DNA of 64,000 nucleotides, taken from the NCBI GenBank assembly GCA_048938025.1, contig JBHLMP010000001.1:1-64000 (forward strand), written 5' to 3'. The DNA comes from Promethearchaeota archaeon. Lineage in GTDB: Archaea > Asgardarchaeota > Lokiarchaeia > Sigyniarchaeales > SOKP01. The notes beneath the pieces are model-generated. The model searched no databases. It saw nothing but the letters and a program-made list of their open reading frames with translations, and was not told the origin of the DNA. Below are positions 5,480 to 29,634 of this stretch, one piece after another; position 1 is the first letter of the stretch; the number at the start of each line of letters is the position of its first letter. Position numbers and translations under genes: made by a program.

Positions 5480-7468
5480 TCATAATTTTTTCAAATGCAG
5501 TGAGTAAATACTAATTTCTACAATTTCATTATTTTTTACTTCAAAACAACGAAATCCTGGAGGTTTATAACTTCTAAAATGCGAATTTACAGGACCAAGC
5601 GCTTGTGTTTGAAAGATGAAAGGCTTATTTACGTCAAACCAAATACTTAAATCCATTGGATCTTCGAATTTTTTGAAATAATCTCTATAATTATCCATAT
5701 AGACTTCACATGGAACATCAATAAAAATAGGAGCAAAAAGAAATCCGATACTTAGGCTTTCTGATTCTTTTTTAACTTCTTTTAACCTAAATTCTTTAAT
5801 GGTATGAGTATGTCCACATAAAATTAGATCAACTTTTCTTTTAATTATTTCATCAGATCCAATAAATATTTTTAATAGATCTGCCCAGTTATACATAATA
5901 GTTTCATACTTTAAATTAAAGAGAGTCTCTAATCTTGAACTTCCTAATTTTTTTTTCAAATTATCTTCATAGAAATCAGACCATTTAAGCTTTCTATATC
6001 TTAATTTCAATTTTTTTCTATATTTTCTTCTTTTAAGAATGCTTAAGTTTGGTGAAACAGGAGGTGTATGCATTACAATAATTATTTTTTCATCTCCACA
6101 TAATTTTATATATGCTCTTAATAAATCAATTTGATAATCTTTTAATCCTCTTGTACTTGGAGCACCTCTAATAAGATCATGAATATCCGCGATCGAATCT
6201 CTTCCTGTATCTAAGAATATGAAATTAAATTCACCAATTTTTATCTTAAAATTAAGAATAGGATTTAAATACGTAAAATAATCTTTTAAAAATCTACGTT
6301 TTGAGTATAAAGCATTAATATAACTAAAATCTTTGCTATCTTCATAATTTTTTACCTCTTTTTTGGTAACTCCAAAGATTTTATGAATATTACCAAATTT
6401 TATACTATAATGTCCTCTACGGTAATCATGGTTTCCTGGAATTGTAAATATGGGACATAGGATCTCTTTTTTATTAATATATTCTTTATCTGTTATTAAA
6501 AAAGGAGGTTTATTTAAGCCTTTATTCAAACCAAGTAAAATTTCAAATAAAACATGGAAATTGTTTTCATCATCTTCATAATTAGCTGGTTCAATATAAT
6601 CTACCAAATCACCACCAAATAGAATAAAATCAAATTTTTTATCATTTACAAAACTAATTAGCTTTCTTAGATGATAATTAAAATTAAATTTTGCTGTGAG
6701 GAGTTCTTTAAATCTATACAATTGAAATCCTTTTTTAAAATCAAAATCTCTCTCTAACATATTTTTCTTAGTTTTACTAGGAATTCTAATGCTTTTACTC
6801 AGCTTTTTGACCTTCTTTCTTGTTCTCTCTTTTAAAAATTTTGAAATAAAATCGTTCCTTCTGGCTATATGTAAATCGGTTGCATGAATAAATTTTAAAT
6901 TTTCTAAATCTTTATTAAATAAAGCAAGACTGTGAAAGTTGGTTATTTCTTCATTTCTATTAGGAATTCGATAAATTATATCAAACAAAATAAATCTTCT
7001 TTCAATTTTTTCAAATAATGCTTCGATACTTCTAATATTACTGATCTCAAATACAATCTTAAATAATTCATTTCTTTCTCCAAAGATTCCTTCTTCTTTT
7101 AAAATTGTATGCTGTAAATCAAAAAGAATACAATTTTCTTCTTTTAAGAGATTATTTTCATTAATGTTTTTATTTAAACTGGTTATTTCAATTAGTTTTA
7201 AAGGGTATCGCTCTCCCCTTCTTTCCAAGAATTTTCCCTCATCTTTTAAAATAGGTTGAATAAATGTATTAAGATGGAAATCCTTCCCAATTTCTGGAAT
7301 AGTTTGTGTTGGGATAGTTATAATTATTGCTTCAAAAATTACATTTTTAAGATATTTGCCTTCTTCATTTTTAAAATCTTCTAGATTTATTAGCTGAGGT
7401 TGTCCCAGATTAGGTTTGATTATTAAAGGAAAATCCCCTTTATTTAAGTCCAACTGAAATGTAGACAT
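5480..7468 (-). CDS. Calcineurin-like metallophosphoesterase with long insertions
   Basis: TDLH, GDLVD, GNHD, MHTPP, GHTH motifs. Confidence 0.85.
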   Translation of the reverse strand: MSTFQLDLNKGDFPLIIKPNLGQPQLINLEDFKNEEGKYLKNVIFEAIIITIPTQTIPEIGKDFHLNTFIQPILKDEGKFLERRGERYPLKLIEITSLNKNINENNLLKEENCILFDLQHTILKEEGIFGERNELFKIVFEISNIRSIEALFEKIERRFILFDIIYRIPNRNEEITNFHSLALFNKDLENLKFIHATDLHIARRNDFISKFLKERTRKKVKKLSKSIRIPSKTKKNMLERDFDFKKGFQLYRFKELLTAKFNFNYHLRKLISFVNDKKFDFILFGGDLVDYIEPANYEDDENNFHVLFEILLGLNKGLNKPPFLITDKEYINKKEILCPIFTIPGNHDYRRGHYSIKFGNIHKIFGVTKKEVKNYEDSKDFSYINALYSKRRFLKDYFTYLNPILNFKIKIGEFNFIFLDTGRDSIADIHDLIRGAPSTRGLKDYQIDLLRAYIKLCGDEKIIIVMHTPPVSPNLSILKRRKYRKKLKLRYRKLKWSDFYEDNLKKKLGSSRLETLFNLKYETIMYNWADLLKIFIGSDEIIKRKVDLILCGHTHTIKEFRLKEVKKESESLSIGFLFAPIFIDVPCEVYMDNYRDYFKKFEDPMDLSIWFDVNKPFIFQTQALGPVNSHFRSYKPPGFRCFEVKNNEIVEISIYSLHLKKL

Positions 7469-16199: not shown

Positions 16200-16664
16200 A
16201 TGGTAGAGGTTAATAAAGCACTTCTAAGCCCGTGTGGGTTATATTGTGGTGTATGCGCAATTTATATAGCTCACAGGGATAATAATCAAAAATTTAAGCA
16301 AATTCTATTACCTATATATAAAGCTTTTGCAAAAAATGTCGAAGATATTTCATGCACCGGTTGTTTATCTGATGGAATTATATTTCCTGTCTGTAAAAGT
16401 TGTTCAATTAAGAAATGTACTAAACAAAAAGGGATAGAAGGTTGTCATCAATGCGATGATTTTCCCTGTAAATTTATTAATAACTTTCCTATTCCAGTAG
16501 GTAAAAAAGTAATCCTACGGGCAATCCCTACTTGGCGAGAATTGGGTACTGAAAAATGGGTAGAAGAAGAAGAAAAAAGATATATTTGCCCAGAGTGTGG
16601 AAATAAACTATTTCGTGGAGCAAAAAAATGCAATAAATGCAAAGTTGCTGTTGCTGTTGACTAA
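16200..16664 (+). CDS. DUF3795-like Cys-rich protein
   Basis: PCGLYCGVC, CTGC, CSIKKC, CHQCDDFPC, CPECG. Confidence 0.85.
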   Translation: MVEVNKALLSPCGLYCGVCAIYIAHRDNNQKFKQILLPIYKAFAKNVEDISCTGCLSDGIIFPVCKSCSIKKCTKQKGIEGCHQCDDFPCKFINNFPIPVGKKVILRAIPTWRELGTEKWVEEEEKRYICPECGNKLFRGAKKCNKCKVAVAVD

Positions 16665-16747
16665 ATAATGGTATTTACTATTAGTTAACTTTTAATTATA
16701 TAGATATTTCATTATATTGATTATATCAAACAAAGAGTGATTCTTAA

Positions 16748-18538: not shown

Positions 18539-19252
18539 TTATTCTACTGTCGTATCATTTATAACATCATAATAAAGATAAATATATGATTGTTTCAAAA
18601 TTTCACATTTTTTAAGTTTCAATGCTTTAATATCCAATAAATCATTATCTCTCCGAGCTGCTATTCCATCAATAGATGTAGATGTTTCTTTTCCACCAAT
18701 TAAACAGGGTGCTATTAATAATGAAATATGATCTATAAGTTTTTGTTTAAGAAATAGAGCATTTAATGTACCCCCAGTTTGAATTGAGAGTTTCTCAATA
18801 TCATATTCTTGTTTTAATTTAATAAATAAATCTTTAAAATCAATAGAATTTGAATAATAAATTATTTTGAGTTCTCCTTCCATTTTAAATTTAAAAACAG
18901 GATGGTTTTTGTTGTTAGTCACAAGATATAGTGATTTAAATGAATTTAATAAATAATTAATTCCTTTTTCAGTAAGGTTTGGCTTCCGATCAATGACAAT
19001 GAGACTTACATCCTTATGATTATCTTCTTTATCACGTAAATTAACTCCAATTTTAACTAATACTTTTCCACTAATCAAAGCATATCTTTCTGTCCTAAGT
19101 AAGAAATCATAGTATTGATAATATCCTTCTTTAATACCTCTTATTTTAGGAAAGTCCTTTTCTTGATCTCGTTCATCAATATCTCCAGTAGATATTTTAC
19201 CATCTACTGATTGAAGCAAAAAGAGTGTTGTCTCAACACGATTAAGATTCAT
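18539..19252 (-). CDS. RibD C-terminal / pyrimidine reductase-like protein
   Basis: QSVDGKIS, QTGGTLN, LIDHISLLIAPCLIGG. Confidence 0.85.
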   Translation of the reverse strand: MNLNRVETTLFLLQSVDGKISTGDIDERDQEKDFPKIRGIKEGYYQYYDFLLRTERYALISGKVLVKIGVNLRDKEDNHKDVSLIVIDRKPNLTEKGINYLLNSFKSLYLVTNNKNHPVFKFKMEGELKIIYYSNSIDFKDLFIKLKQEYDIEKLSIQTGGTLNALFLKQKLIDHISLLIAPCLIGGKETSTSIDGIAARRDNDLLDIKALKLKKCEILKQSYIYLYYDVINDTTVE

Positions 19253-19492: not shown

Positions 19493-19744
19493 TTAACCTC
19501 CTGCTTGAGTTGCCATTACTGTAATTACGTCTTTTTTTGGATGAATTTGTGTTTTAGAAAATTTTAATTGATCTGGTAAAACTTTTCCCTTAAATATAAA
19601 TTGTATAGCTAAAATTGGATTTAACTTATATTCGCGTTGTACAGTTTTTTTAATTTCCGCTATTGAACTATTTGGATCTAACTCGATAAGCTTTATAGCT
19701 TGATCGGGTGGAACCCCTGTAAGTCTAAATCTATATTGAGTAAT
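19493..19744 (-). CDS. Ubiquitin-like protein, 83 aa, C-terminal QAGG (missed by ORF track; ATT start)
   Basis: (M)TQYRFRLTGVPPDQAIKLIELDPNSSIAEIKKTVQREYKLNPILAIQFIFKGKVLPDQLKFSKTQIHPKKDVITVMATQAGG*; GAAGTGA lies 6 nt before ATT. Confidence 0.88.
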   Translation of the reverse strand: MTQYRFRLTGVPPDQAIKLIELDPNSSIAEIKKTVQREYKLNPILAIQFIFKGKVLPDQLKFSKTQIHPKKDVITVMATQAGG

Positions 19745-19954
19745 TTTTAATCACTTCTATTTTTAGCAAAATTTGATTTAATATTAAAGTGATATAGGGT
19801 GAATTTTTAAATAAATATTTTTGTCCAATCTTATATACCTCAGTTTAAAATGCTCTAAAATGAGCTTTTTAAAGTAAATATTCTTACTATAGAGTAAAAA
19901 GCAATGAAATTAGGTCTTAAGTGAAAATATTTGCATTATCAATTAAATTAATAT

Positions 19955-20170
19955 TTAGTCTTCTTTAAACCGAAAGGGCTGTGGAGGAGTTCCTGGTGGT
20001 CCAGGCGGTCCAGGACGTTCAGGTGAAGGATAGGGTGTTGGACGAGGGTATGGTTGAAGTGGTTTTCTGTTCAATAATTTTTCTAAAGATAATAATCGAT
20101 TTTCCAAGTCATCTAATCTTTTTTCAATTTTTATAATTCTTTCTAATAAATTTGGGTTTTCTATTGTCAT
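19955..20170 (-). CDS. Small coiled-coil protein with proline-rich tail
   Basis: LLERIIKIEKRLDDLENRLLSLEK followed by PYPRPTPYPSPERPGPPGPPGTPPQP. Confidence 0.7.
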   Translation of the reverse strand: MTIENPNLLERIIKIEKRLDDLENRLLSLEKLLNRKPLQPYPRPTPYPSPERPGPPGPPGTPPQPFRFKED

Positions 20171-20443: not shown

Positions 20444-21550
20444 ATGGAAAGCTGGAATATATCAAAAAAGTTAAAGAGCGAGTTATTAAAAAAATCTAGT
20501 AATATTGAGGACAACAATAGGAGGATACTTTTTATCCTTAGGAATTTAGGTCCACAAAGATTTACTAATTTGATAAAATATTCAAATTTAAGTAGATCTA
20601 CGGTTTCTAAATATCTTAGTATTCATAGAAAAAATAATAACGTAGAACAAAGAATAATTACTGATAAGCAAACAAAAAAACAATACCGTGGTTATGTAAT
20701 TACTGAAAAAGGAATAGAAAAACTAAGAGAAGAGCCTTTAAAACTAAAAGAAGAACTATTTATAGTTAATGAGTTAAAAGAAAACGTCCGAAAGCTCGAG
20801 GATTTAATAGATTTTTATAAGGAAATAAATGTAGAAGATGCATTTATAGTTCACATAGTGAGAATCATTTCTAAAATAGGAGATAATTTTTTTGAATTAC
20901 ATCAAGATAGAGATCTATATTTATCTCTTTTTTACATCTTTTATAACTCAATTCTTGGCCAAGGAGCTTTTGCAAGAAGATATTGGCGTTTTGATGAATC
21001 AAGTTCTCAAAAATTTCTTGGGTACAAATTGAATTTGGATCAGTTCTGTGAACTTCATAAAGTTTCAAGAGAAGCAATCAATTATTTAGCTAGATTTAAG
21101 TTAATAAAGGACGAGTTTGGCTTTTATTTAATTAAACGTGAACATAATGATTTCTTTTTTCATGAGGAAGATTTATTGGGAACTACAACACTCCGACTTA
21201 TTAAAGATAAATTAATTGATGAAATAATTAATCTTCAAGAAGGTATCTACGATATGATTTATGATATGGATATTCTGGCTGAAGAAATTACTGATCAATT
21301 AAAAGAAATGGGTTTAATATGGAACACTATTCAAGAACAATTTCAATTATTAGTATTAAATCTAATTATTAAGAACGCAATAGAAATGGGTTTTTTAGAT
21401 ATAGAGAGAGAAAAATTTATGGAAGGCGTTGCTCAATCTCAAAAATTATCTATGTCTGAAGAAGGCAAAATACTTCAAGAAACCATTTTAGATGGTTCAA
21501 GAATAGATTTAAATTTAAATATTCTTACTTTAACACCAAATCATGAATGA
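20444..21550 (+). CDS. Winged-helix DNA-binding domain protein
   Basis: RILFIL..RFTNL..LSRSTVSKYL..YVITEKG. Confidence 0.75.
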   Translation: MESWNISKKLKSELLKKSSNIEDNNRRILFILRNLGPQRFTNLIKYSNLSRSTVSKYLSIHRKNNNVEQRIITDKQTKKQYRGYVITEKGIEKLREEPLKLKEELFIVNELKENVRKLEDLIDFYKEINVEDAFIVHIVRIISKIGDNFFELHQDRDLYLSLFYIFYNSILGQGAFARRYWRFDESSSQKFLGYKLNLDQFCELHKVSREAINYLARFKLIKDEFGFYLIKREHNDFFFHEEDLLGTTTLRLIKDKLIDEIINLQEGIYDMIYDMDILAEEITDQLKEMGLIWNTIQEQFQLLVLNLIIKNAIEMGFLDIEREKFMEGVAQSQKLSMSEEGKILQETILDGSRIDLNLNILTLTPNHE

Positions 21551-27739: not shown

Positions 27740-28474
27740 CTATTTTGAGCAAATGCAATTTTCATTTTTAATGATATCTATTATATTAAATCTTAAATCT
27801 ACTAGATTTACCATTAATAGTTTATTTTCCAAATTTGGAAGTCCTAATGCTGTTTTTATAACTTCAAGAGCTTCTAACGTTCCTAATATGCCAGGAGTTA
27901 CACCTATTACTGGTAAAGGTCCTTCTTCTGGAGAAATTTTCTCTGGTTCAGAAAAAACACATTGATAACAAGCAGTCTTTTTTGGATTTATTGTAATGAT
28001 TTGGCCATAAAAATCTTTTATTCCAGCAATTATACACTTCAGATTATTTTGTATGGCAATTTTATTAACTAAAAACTTAGTTTGGAAATTATCAGAACAA
28101 TCTATAATAAAATCATGTCCTTTAACGTATTTTCTTATCGAATCTTCCTCTACATATTCTTTATAAGTATGTATTTGAACTTCAGAATTTAGATTAGATA
28201 AAACCGTCTTAGCTGATTCTGCTTTATCTTTACCTATTTGATTTTCATTATAAAGAATTTGTCTTTGAAGGTTTGAAATATCTAAAACATCATTGTCAAT
28301 TATGGTTAATTTTTTTATCCCAGCAGCAGTAAGATACATAGAACAGGGTGAGCCAAGGCCTCCGGCTCCAATTTGCAATACACTAATATTCGATATCTTT
28401 TTTTGCCCCTCCTCACCAATTAATGGAGAGATAATTTGTCTTGAATACCTCTCTTTTTGCTTTTCATTTAAAAT
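27740..28474 (-). CDS. ThiF/MoeB/HesA family E1-like adenylyltransferase
   Basis: Extended upstream to ATT 28474: LNEKQKERYSRQII..IGEEGQKKI, GAGGLG, SNLQRQ, DCSDN, CYQC. Confidence 0.9.
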   Translation of the reverse strand: MLNEKQKERYSRQIISPLIGEEGQKKISNISVLQIGAGGLGSPCSMYLTAAGIKKLTIIDNDVLDISNLQRQILYNENQIGKDKAESAKTVLSNLNSEVQIHTYKEYVEEDSIRKYVKGHDFIIDCSDNFQTKFLVNKIAIQNNLKCIIAGIKDFYGQIITINPKKTACYQCVFSEPEKISPEEGPLPVIGVTPGILGTLEALEVIKTALGLPNLENKLLMVNLVDLRFNIIDIIKNENCICSK

Positions 28475-28480
28475 TGAATT

Positions 28481-28855
28481 TCACCCACTTAAAATTTTTT
28501 TAATATTTTTAATAGCTTCTTCAATTTCTATGAAAAAAATACCTAAATTTGTATCTATATCTAACATAGAAACGAGAATTACTTGATTATCAATACTCAT
28601 GACTATAATTTGGTAATTATTAAATTCTACTGTTATATTATTTATGGTATCACTTCCTAAAGTTAAAGCAGCCGTTTCAATGGCACCAAACATGGTAGCC
28701 GCCATTGCCCCAAATTTTCTCTTGTCAACATCTATAGGTAATATTGAAGTAATTAATAAGCCATTTCGATTTGCAATTGCTATACCTATAATATCACTCA
28801 TAGTTTCTAATTTTTCCAATTCCTTATTAAGGCTTTCAATTTTTGAGTTATTCAT
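28481..28855 (-). CDS. Roadblock/LC7 domain protein
   Basis: GIAIANRNGLLITS, FGAMAATMFGA, ITVE, NLG pattern. Confidence 0.9.
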   Translation of the reverse strand: MNNSKIESLNKELEKLETMSDIIGIAIANRNGLLITSILPIDVDKRKFGAMAATMFGAIETAALTLGSDTINNITVEFNNYQIIVMSIDNQVILVSMLDIDTNLGIFFIEIEEAIKNIKKILSG

Positions 28856-29192: not shown

Positions 29193-29501
29193 TTATATAT
29201 CATCCGCTTCATTTCTATGCATCAATTTTTCTTCAGTGTCTTCAGCAAAGATTAGTTTCTCTCGATCCTGACCTATGAAGATTATAGAGGCACCCCTTAT
29301 CATTACTGTTCCTAAATCTTTACTTCGCTTTCCACCACGTCCGAAATAAATTTCTTTAGCGTTTTCAACTACTAAGTTCATGTAATTATCAAACTTTTTT
29401 AATTTACCTGTTAAATAAGTGTTCCAAATCTTTAGCTTGATGCGAACCTCTTCCTTTAATATCGCTTTCGATAATGTACGATGAATTGTTTGCTGACTCA
29501 T
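29193..29501 (-). CDS. Sm/Lsm protein
   Basis: GKLKKFDNYMNLVV (Sm1) and LGTVMIRG (Sm2); directly upstream of rpl37e, the usual archaeal arrangement. Confidence 0.9.
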   Translation of the reverse strand: MSQQTIHRTLSKAILKEEVRIKLKIWNTYLTGKLKKFDNYMNLVVENAKEIYFGRGGKRSKDLGTVMIRGASIIFIGQDREKLIFAEDTEEKLMHRNEADDI

Positions 29502-29634
29502 CAAAAATTTTTCTTTAATTTTATAGATAATTGATAAAGTTAATTGTAAGATCAAATAAATATTTTTTTAAATATTTAAGGATTTAAAATAACATTAGGA
29601 TGTAGAATAGTAAATTAATGAATTAACATTAAAA

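Follow-up and report, generated by a model that had tools for sequence, protein, structure and literature searches.

A free-standing ubiquitin-family protein with an apparent ATT start in Lokiarchaeia, and its candidate E1 and E2 partners

Asgard ubiquitin systems serve to reconstruct the origin of eukaryotic ubiquitin signaling, and attention has so far centered on systems encoded in operons. Two reports describe such arrangements in Caldiarchaeum subterraneum (Ub/E1/E2/srfp/Rpn11; PMC5654768) and in Helarchaeia (10.1101/2023.07.25.550441): the modifier shares an operon with its activating (E1) and conjugating (E2) enzymes, the system has been reconstituted in vitro, and the modifier is made as a pro-ubiquitin, whose nine extra residues in Caldiarchaeum are cut off by a JAMM protease ahead of activation by the E1 and whose four extra residues in Helarchaeia are removed by processing, with activation following. 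Here, we analyze a stretch of 64,000 nucleotides from a Promethearchaeota archaeon (assembly GCA_048938025.1, contig JBHLMP010000001.1, positions 1 to 64,000; hereafter the window), in which an 83-codon frame that opens with ATT encodes a ubiquitin-family protein that we call Ubl. Like those operon-encoded modifiers, Ubl ends in di-glycine, has orthologues with pro-peptides, and can be paired with candidate E1 and UBC-type E2 enzymes; unlike them, it is encoded alone and is known from its sequence only. On balance, and with confidence that goes somewhat beyond even, we read Ubl as a free-standing, eukaryote-type modifier of the ubiquitin family, initiated at AUU and conjugated through an E1-E2 pair encoded on another contig of the same genome (contig C20). 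In the available parts of the literature that we searched, operon-type Asgard ubiquitin systems are described and the Ubl family is not, while supplementary catalogs (e.g., that of PMC9192718) may list it.

A preliminary description of this DNA had proposed an 83-residue open reading frame (ORF) hidden by its ATT start, and such a frame is indeed present, on the minus strand (the description had named none) from 19744 to 19493, with 83 codons running from ATT to GGT GGA and a TAA stop. The stop-to-stop frame has 85 codons (19493..19750), since only two sense codons, TTA AAA, separate the upstream in-frame TGA from the ATT, and no ATG, GTG, or TTG occurs in the frame ahead of Met78, so that it was omitted from the standard ORF list. 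The assembled contigs of two public DNA runs have no alternative letter at 19742-19744, and a search for RNA runs that contain the locus found none. The protein begins I-T-Q-Y-R-F-R-L-T-G-V-P-P and ends V-M-A-T-Q-A-G-G, directly before the stop, as the description had read it. We conclude that the ORF is a genuine gene, missed by gene finders here owing to its ATT start.

The codon aligned with this ATT was compared in 50 orthologous loci (30 in a first set and 20 from further genomes), where it is ATT in 24, ATG in 22, and ATA, ACG, GTG, and TTG in one each. ATT prevails among the 22 loci from the genus of the window, of which 19 carry it, with five more ATT loci in three other genera, and ATG is found in all 10 loci of other families within the first set. 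An SD (Shine-Dalgarno)-like motif stands ahead of the ATT, and orthologues carry GGGTGTGAT, AGTGAT, or GGTG at the matching distance, 5 to 8 nucleotides upstream of the start. Because orthologues have ATG at the same codon and an SD-like motif lies upstream, we infer that ATT is a near-cognate initiation codon of Ubl, positioned by the SD-like GTGAT. Ahead of 956 ATG codons of this genome that are likely starts, both AGTGA and TGATT rank among the commonest 5-mers, those made of A and T only set aside; the 3′ end of the 16S rRNA was not found in the assembly.

Starts of this kind also appear at other genes of the genome, which argues that the ATT is not special to Ubl. In the frame of the C20 E2, the first canonical start is codon 71, yet the UBC domain begins at residue 25, and an ATC stands behind AGGTGAT; in a MoeB-type ThiF gene of the window (putative start at 28472-28474, minus strand), the domain begins 23 codons before the first TTG, and an ATT stands behind GGGTGA. 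A genome scan for long frames that combine a strong SD-like motif with a near-cognate codon (ATT, ATC, ATA, ACG, or CTG), and in which a canonical start is absent for at least 15 codons, returned 34 rows, three frames being listed twice with two neighboring candidate codons. Among nine of these frames that were checked, the first canonical start would cut the Pfam match in four (a receiver domain, a ferredoxin domain, a TFB zinc ribbon, and a weak, below-cut-off match to DUF6513), and the other five were not decisive. A first, genome-wide count of codons behind SD-like motifs was unspecific (ATT 3.6%, AAA 3.4%, all codons 2.3%); a stricter version gave 6.3 to 9.3% for ATC, ACG, and CTG versus 7.2% for ATG, with ATT and ATA at 3.6%, a pattern that is suggestive of ATC, ACG, and CTG serving as starts in this genome and weak for ATT and ATA. 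Initiation at near-cognate codons appears to be characteristic of this organism, and at Ubl it may lower the output of the gene. Within the genus, AUU, AUC, or AUA starts would be used by Ubl, the C20 E2, a TFB, and others; gene callers would then miss or shorten such genes, with the consequence that surveys of “eukaryotic signature proteins” in Asgard archaea would undercount them. The preliminary suspicion that the family is under-annotated holds in this sense for the ATT-start copies, which are missed, but not for the ATG-start orthologues, several of which NCBI already lists as “ubiquitin-like protein.” Elsewhere in the window, a 251-codon, membrane-like frame at about 1268 (plus strand) has another apparent near-cognate start.

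Matches to Ubl were found in 36 of 41 related genomes at 72 to 96% identity, with 93 to 96% within the genus and 72 to 90% in other families of the order. The frame is uninterrupted in all 50 orthologous loci, and its stop-to-stop length is about 85 to 99 codons in 29 of the 30 loci of the first set (a second copy in genome G007, which is not among these loci, has 127). Compared with the window copy, same-genus loci differ at 60 to 84% of synonymous sites, which is near saturation (24% for the very close locus L093), and at only 2 to 5% of nonsynonymous sites; the ratio of nonsynonymous to synonymous rates (dN/dS) is 0.012 to 0.038 in the 18 within-genus comparisons for which dS could be computed (L006 to L024), and 0.072 for L093. 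Identity of 72 to 96% across the order and a dN/dS of about 0.02 show that, in addition to operon-encoded systems, Lokiarchaeia retain a free-standing protein of the ubiquitin type, and that the purifying selection on it is ubiquitin-like.

A search across Asgard genomes, as the preliminary description had advised, sampled 251 genomes of the phylum and found Ubl in 51, which all belong to three families of one class; it was found in none of the 190 genomes from other families. The source names of database homologues identify the class as Lokiarchaeia/Promethearchaeota; among those of orthologues, one gives the name of a Lokiarchaeum species and another carries the label Hodarchaeota. Among 1.84 billion database proteins, the family counts 129 representatives at E ≤0.001, and polyubiquitin is there at 29% identity. 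In this genome, a hidden Markov model (HMM) of the family finds a single member at 159.8 bits, followed at 17 bits by the Ubls of an operon on contig C8, and no paralogue of Ubl. The wider family includes tandem copies, long proteins with a ubiquitin-like (UBL) domain at one end or the other, and fusions of E2 and UBL. As judged from these searches, Ubl is a distinct family specific to Lokiarchaeia, its distinctness having been anticipated by the preliminary description.

Some orthologues depart from the common form. Locus L072 (G027:C61, about 6186-6215) carries a 30-nucleotide insert that holds an in-frame TAA, with a 7- to 9-bp hairpin and a 5-nucleotide direct repeat at its ends; the region is predicted to adopt a helix-bulge-helix-like fold (−28.1 kcal/mol, z −4.06). 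The insert may be a mini-intron or a small insertion, and three homologues (P0036, P0047, and P0070) have in-frame inserts of 10 to 11 residues near the same site. In two further genomes of the genus, Ubl was found as its last 47 residues only, with the C20-type E2 in two pieces (G012), or was not found, with the E2 split by an internal TGA (G226); these cases may represent joint decay of the system or assembly artifacts.

The C-terminal Gly-Gly, whose conservation the preliminary description had named as a check, is present in all 50 orthologous loci, where it is followed by 0 (14 loci), 1 (32 loci), 2 (3 loci), or 3 (1 locus) extra residues that vary freely. The motif is matched by 109 of the best 120 database homologues, whose tails comprise 0 (27), 1 (50), 2 (8), or 3 to 63 (24) residues; 4 more have Gly-Gly behind a small insert or substitution, and 7 lack it, some of them being clearly truncated. 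The combination of an invariant Gly-Gly and a hypervariable extension is characteristic of processed modifiers. In this genome, TAA directly follows Gly-Gly, so that the gene itself specifies the mature end, a minority state among the orthologous loci. The earlier statement that no processing protease is needed is thus right for this genome and wrong for the 36 of 50 loci that have 1 to 3 residues after Gly-Gly.

Ubl matches the Pfam ubiquitin family (PF00240) with 34.7 bits against a cut-off of 25.4 (E 1.5e-8, residues 17-80; 33.6 bits at this site in the whole-genome scan), and the two stretches that the preliminary description had quoted as ubiquitin hallmarks are those that HMMER aligns to ubiquitin. 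An AlphaFold2 model built with 48 family members (predicted local distance difference test, pLDDT, 93.1; predicted template modeling score, pTM, 0.81) is a beta-grasp with strands (E) and helices (H) at E2-8, H13-16, E17-22, H28-38, E46-51, H62-65, and E73-79, that is, in the beta-beta-alpha-beta-beta-3(10)-beta order of ubiquitin, and with a low-confidence C-terminal tail. When this model was compared with the PDB by Foldseek, the top matches were ubiquitin, as were nearly all of the 47 matches listed (1ubq: template modeling [TM] score 0.78/0.84, root mean square deviation 2.0 Å, 22% identity), with the Get5 UBL and Caldiarchaeum ubiquitin (rank 28) also among them. As modeled, Ubl is a ubiquitin-family beta-grasp closest to ubiquitin, so that the preliminary expectation of a beta-grasp fold is borne out by the prediction. 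Like eukaryotic ubiquitin, it lies above the PF00240 threshold, has the same topology and a flexible Gly-Gly tail, and has relatives with pro-peptide tails. Unlike it, Ubl (i) is only about 22% identical in the structural alignment; (ii) has a longer loop between strands 1 and 2, with a short helix (residues 9-16); (iii) has an uncharged tail (A-T-Q-A-G-G) and its own N-terminal signature, YRFRLTGVPP; and (iv) is encoded by a gene of its own, not in a polyprotein or a ribosomal fusion.

In agreement with the preliminary description, which had noted the lack of an adjacent E1, E2, or E3, no E1, E2, or JAMM gene lies beside Ubl, and matches to UQ_con and JAB are absent from the window's contig (C33). 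The clustering with E1, E2, RING-type ligase (E3), or JAMM genes that marks operon-type systems is absent at Ubl, although a relative in another genome (G037:C630) adjoins an E2. A system of the operon type does exist in this same genome, on contig C8, but its Ubls are barely related to Ubl (17 bits against the family profile), and three further clusters have Ubl frames of their own (Table 1). Because the divergent genes on contig C20, with no beta-grasp gene within about 3 kb, form the only E1-E2 pair of the genome that lacks its own Ubl gene, they are the most likely partner.

Three links, namely, adjacency, fusion, and a shared class restriction, connect the Ubl family to enzymes of the C20 type. 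On G037:C630, a Ubl copy, a 379-residue protein whose final domain belongs to the same family, and an E2 with 68% identity to the C20 E2 are arranged head to tail (in the genome of the window, no orthologue of the 379-residue protein was found besides Ubl itself), and on G027:C61, a double-ThiF E1 lies 1.4 kb from Ubl and shares, across the first 145 aligned residues of its C-terminal half, 66% identity with the C20 E1. The natural E2-Ubl fusion P0231 has an E2 part that scores 129 bits to the C20 E2 versus 99.8 bits to the C8 E2, and the E2 part of a second fusion (P0219) likewise fits the C20 E2 better. Finally, E2s with 68% identity or more to the C20 E2 are confined to the same three families as Ubl and were likewise found in none of the 190 genomes outside them. 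The enzymes themselves are of the ubiquitin type: the C20 E1 ranks UBA1 first (2.4e-40), followed by UBA6, UBA7, NAE, SAE2, and MoeB, and the C20 E2 is closest to ubiquitin E2s.

Table 1. Features of the Ubl locus in the window (C33) and E1, E2, JAMM, and ThiF loci of the genome
Feature	Location	Strand	Basis or remark
Ubl coding sequence, 83 residues, ubiquitin family	19496..19744	minus	no internal stop; translation, PF00240, AlphaFold2, orthologues, dN/dS
ATT, putative near-cognate start	19742..19744	minus	aligned codons of orthologues
Gly82-Gly83 codons, putative adenylation and conjugation site	19496..19501	minus	GG kept in 50/50 loci
TAA stop right behind GG	19493..19495	minus	sequence
SD-like AGTGAT, 5 nt upstream of ATT	19750..19755	minus	sequence and orthologues
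71-residue ORF upstream of Ubl, coiled-coil start, proline-rich end	19955..20170	minus	no Pfam family; 14/19 same-genus loci
368-residue protein, winged-helix N-terminus, divergent neighbor	20444..21550	plus	weak HTH matches below cut-offs
MoeB-type ThiF, putative ATT start	27740-28474	minus	232.7 bits
Divergent pair, UBC E2 (~170 residues) and E1 (~530 residues)	contig C20		no own Ubl nearby
Classical operon: two Ubls ending S-T-A-G, E1, E2, JAMM, zinc-finger membrane protein	contig C8; Ubls at 16249-16698 and 18583-18915	plus (Ubls)	own Ubls
JAMM, E1, E2	contig C13, 12635-15144		own 90-94-codon Ubl frame ending V-I-G-G plus 3-4 residues
E1 fragment, E2 (contig end)	contig C22, 1-1268		own 90-94-codon Ubl frame ending V-I-G-G plus 3-4 residues
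JAMM, E2 split by stop; sole ThiF match weak and ~10 kb away	contig C76, 24901-26300		own 90-94-codon Ubl frame
Two MoeB-type ThiF genes	contigs C33 (window) and C52		ThiS/Urm1-type candidates

The clusters on C13, C22, and C76 are related to each other, and their Ubl frames, each of which ends V-I-G-G plus 3 to 4 residues, are undetected by PF00240; the E1 on C13 has about 296 residues, and membrane proteins with C-terminal zinc-ribbon or RING-like motifs adjoin all three. In total, the genome encodes eight JAMM-domain proteins. The two Ubls of the C8 operon carry acidic N-terminal extensions and end in S-T-A-G, not G-G, and a third ubiquitin-like domain lies on the opposite strand, at the end of a 266-residue membrane protein. 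The gene immediately upstream of the C20 E1, in the same orientation, encodes a protein of 2,121 residues that combines an MIT domain at its N terminus with numerous TPR repeats (G000:C20:22224-28589, minus). Eukaryotic MIT domains bind ESCRT-III; because an MIT-domain protein adjoins the candidate E1, by analogy a link of the C20 cascade with ESCRT is conceivable.

In the mechanism that we propose, the AUU start, placed by the SD-like GTGAT, would give a compact beta-grasp with a flexible Gly-Gly tail, whose mature end would be encoded directly in this genome and exposed in most relatives by trimming of 1 to 3 residues, sometimes many more. A UBA1-like E1 would then adenylate the terminal glycine, Ubl would be passed by thioester transfer to a UBC-type E2, and it would finally be attached to lysines of target proteins, the likeliest enzymes being the E1 and E2 of contig C20. 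Judged by the sequence comparisons, Ubl is probably used as a protein modifier by an E1-E2 pair encoded elsewhere, and its activation, the identity of its E1 and E2, and its conjugation are to be understood as predictions.

Several observations weigh against this proposal. Candidates are assigned neither for the E3 nor for the processing protease. Ubl and the C20-type E2/E1 genes are unlinked here and in most genomes, including the others in which both could be assigned to long contigs (e.g., G032 and G183), their adjacency being seen in 2 of 17 fetched neighborhoods. Within the class, co-occurrence is uninformative (both in 46, Ubl only in 5, E2 only in 8, and neither in 2 of 61 genomes), and some genomes without Ubl are 95 to 99% complete. 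By sequence, UBLs that are not conjugated are favored, with 41.6 bits for Get5/Mdy2 and 37.5 for Rad23B versus about 25 to 27 for mono-ubiquitin, and in many family members the UBL domain forms part of a larger protein and has no cleavable Gly-Gly. A complex prediction for the C20 E1 (528 residues) with Ubl, made without controls (score 0.26, mark 0.32), counts neither way.

The sequence matches and the embedded family members lead to the alternative that survives best, although we hold it to be unlikely: Ubl might be a noncovalent adaptor that is never conjugated and that binds, for example, a proteasome receptor, a chaperone, or ESCRT/UEV proteins. In the PDB, the single domains that match best by sequence are the Get5/Mdy2 UBL (4e-5 with the single sequence, 1.1e-9 with the profile) and the Rad23 UBLs, ahead of mono-ubiquitin; the only NCBIfam match is a weak one to rad23; and many relatives are, as in the type II UBL-domain proteins (Get5, Rad23, and ubiquilin), embedded in larger proteins. 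However, this embedding is a feature of paralogues in the wider family and not of Ubl itself. While the UBLs of Get5 and Rad23 are internal, unconjugated domains of adaptors, Ubl is a free protein of 83 residues with a conserved Gly-Gly, and a near-invariant Gly-Gly followed by hypervariable tails of 0 to 63 residues has no obvious use in a binding module. Moreover, the family is genomically linked and fused to a UBC-type E2.

A clearly less probable alternative is that Ubl has a dual function of the SAMP/Urm1 kind. Archaeal SAMPs act independently of an E2, are activated by a MoeB-type E1, and serve in sulfur transfer and/or conjugation; for Ubl, the E1 would be the ThiF protein of the window or that of contig C52. 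The small beta-grasp and the Gly-Gly end are common to Ubl and the ThiS/MoaD/SAMP/Urm1 carriers, which are activated by ThiF-family enzymes, and the nearest E1-like gene is indeed the MoeB-type ThiF, about 8 kb from Ubl and among unrelated genes. Yet, Ubl has no Pfam match to ThiS, MoaD, or Urm1 at E ≤10; whole-genome scans for the ThiS-type (PF02597) and Urm1-type (PF09138) families find 8 and 4 loci, respectively, all on other contigs than Ubl; and the structural matches are to ubiquitin and SUMO, with no sulfur carrier among the 47 listed. This agrees with the preliminary description, in which Ubl was set apart from MoaD, ThiS, and SAMP and a grouping with sulfur carriers was named as a check. 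Nor is a linkage to MoeB/ThiF kept: the window's ThiF is absent from the 20-kb Ubl neighborhoods of two same-genus genomes (G006 and G023), where it does not occur within 10 kb. As a partner of Ubl, this ThiF was rejected, being MoeB-type, set among unrelated neighbors, and not syntenic.

The preliminary description had likened the C terminus to that of SUMO, and the idea that Ubl is an archaeal SUMO counterpart, with a SUMO-type E1 and a Ubc9-type E2, fares worse still; already disfavored, it was drawn from the four terminal residues only, and we give it very little credence. Ubl shares with SUMO the Q-x-G-G end and the beta-grasp, and SUMO-3 and SUMO-1 stand at Foldseek ranks 2 and 17; however, their TM scores over the query length are 0.63 to 0.71 versus 0.78 for ubiquitin, the SUMO-type family Rad60-SLD (PF11976) reaches 13.7 bits, under its cut-off of 23.8, whereas the ubiquitin family exceeds its own, and no SUMO chain is among the best 60 PDB profile matches. 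Strand 1 begins at residue 2, so that Ubl has no N-terminal extension, and the enzymes, so far as they are rightly assigned to Ubl, are of the ubiquitin type, as the E1 ranks UBA1 over SAE2 and Ubc9 is absent from the 60 E2 matches listed. That Ubl might be a decaying remnant or a chance frame, as the lack of ATG, GTG, and TTG starts could be taken to mean, is for practical purposes refuted by the selection pattern, with low dN/dS while synonymous sites are near saturation, and it sits poorly with a frame intact in every orthologous locus, with a near-cognate codon placed exactly where orthologues have ATG and preceded by an SD-like motif, and with the need for near-cognate starts at other genes here that have clear Pfam domains.

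Returning to Ubl as a conjugated modifier, the protein and its candidate dedicated enzymes, a UBA1-like E1 and a UBC E2 acting in trans, would form a cascade that is directly testable, because an orthologue exists in a cultured species (by the source name of P0086). We further speculate, as a possibility that we would rate below even, that Lokiarchaeia run a second, dispersed, eukaryote-like cascade beside their operon systems, made up of a lone, ultraconserved modifier, a UBA1-like E1 and UBC E2 in trans, and a separate trimming protease, with AUU/AUC starts throttling the modifier in several genera and the E2 in this genome. If true, such a dispersed cascade would be the closest prokaryotic analogue of the eukaryotic organization of ubiquitin.

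The genes around Ubl encode a RibD_C protein, a DUF362 protein, a winged helix-turn-helix protein, and NadA. The divergently oriented winged-helix protein of 368 residues adjoins Ubl in 19 of 19 same-genus loci (83 to 90% identity) and, among 10 loci from other genera, in 2 (23 to 26% identity), and judging from its sequence, it is a possible regulator. Farther away, the window's ThiF gene overlaps the end of a Roadblock/LC7 gene (28481-28855, minus), and an LSM-domain gene lies just upstream (29193-29555, minus).

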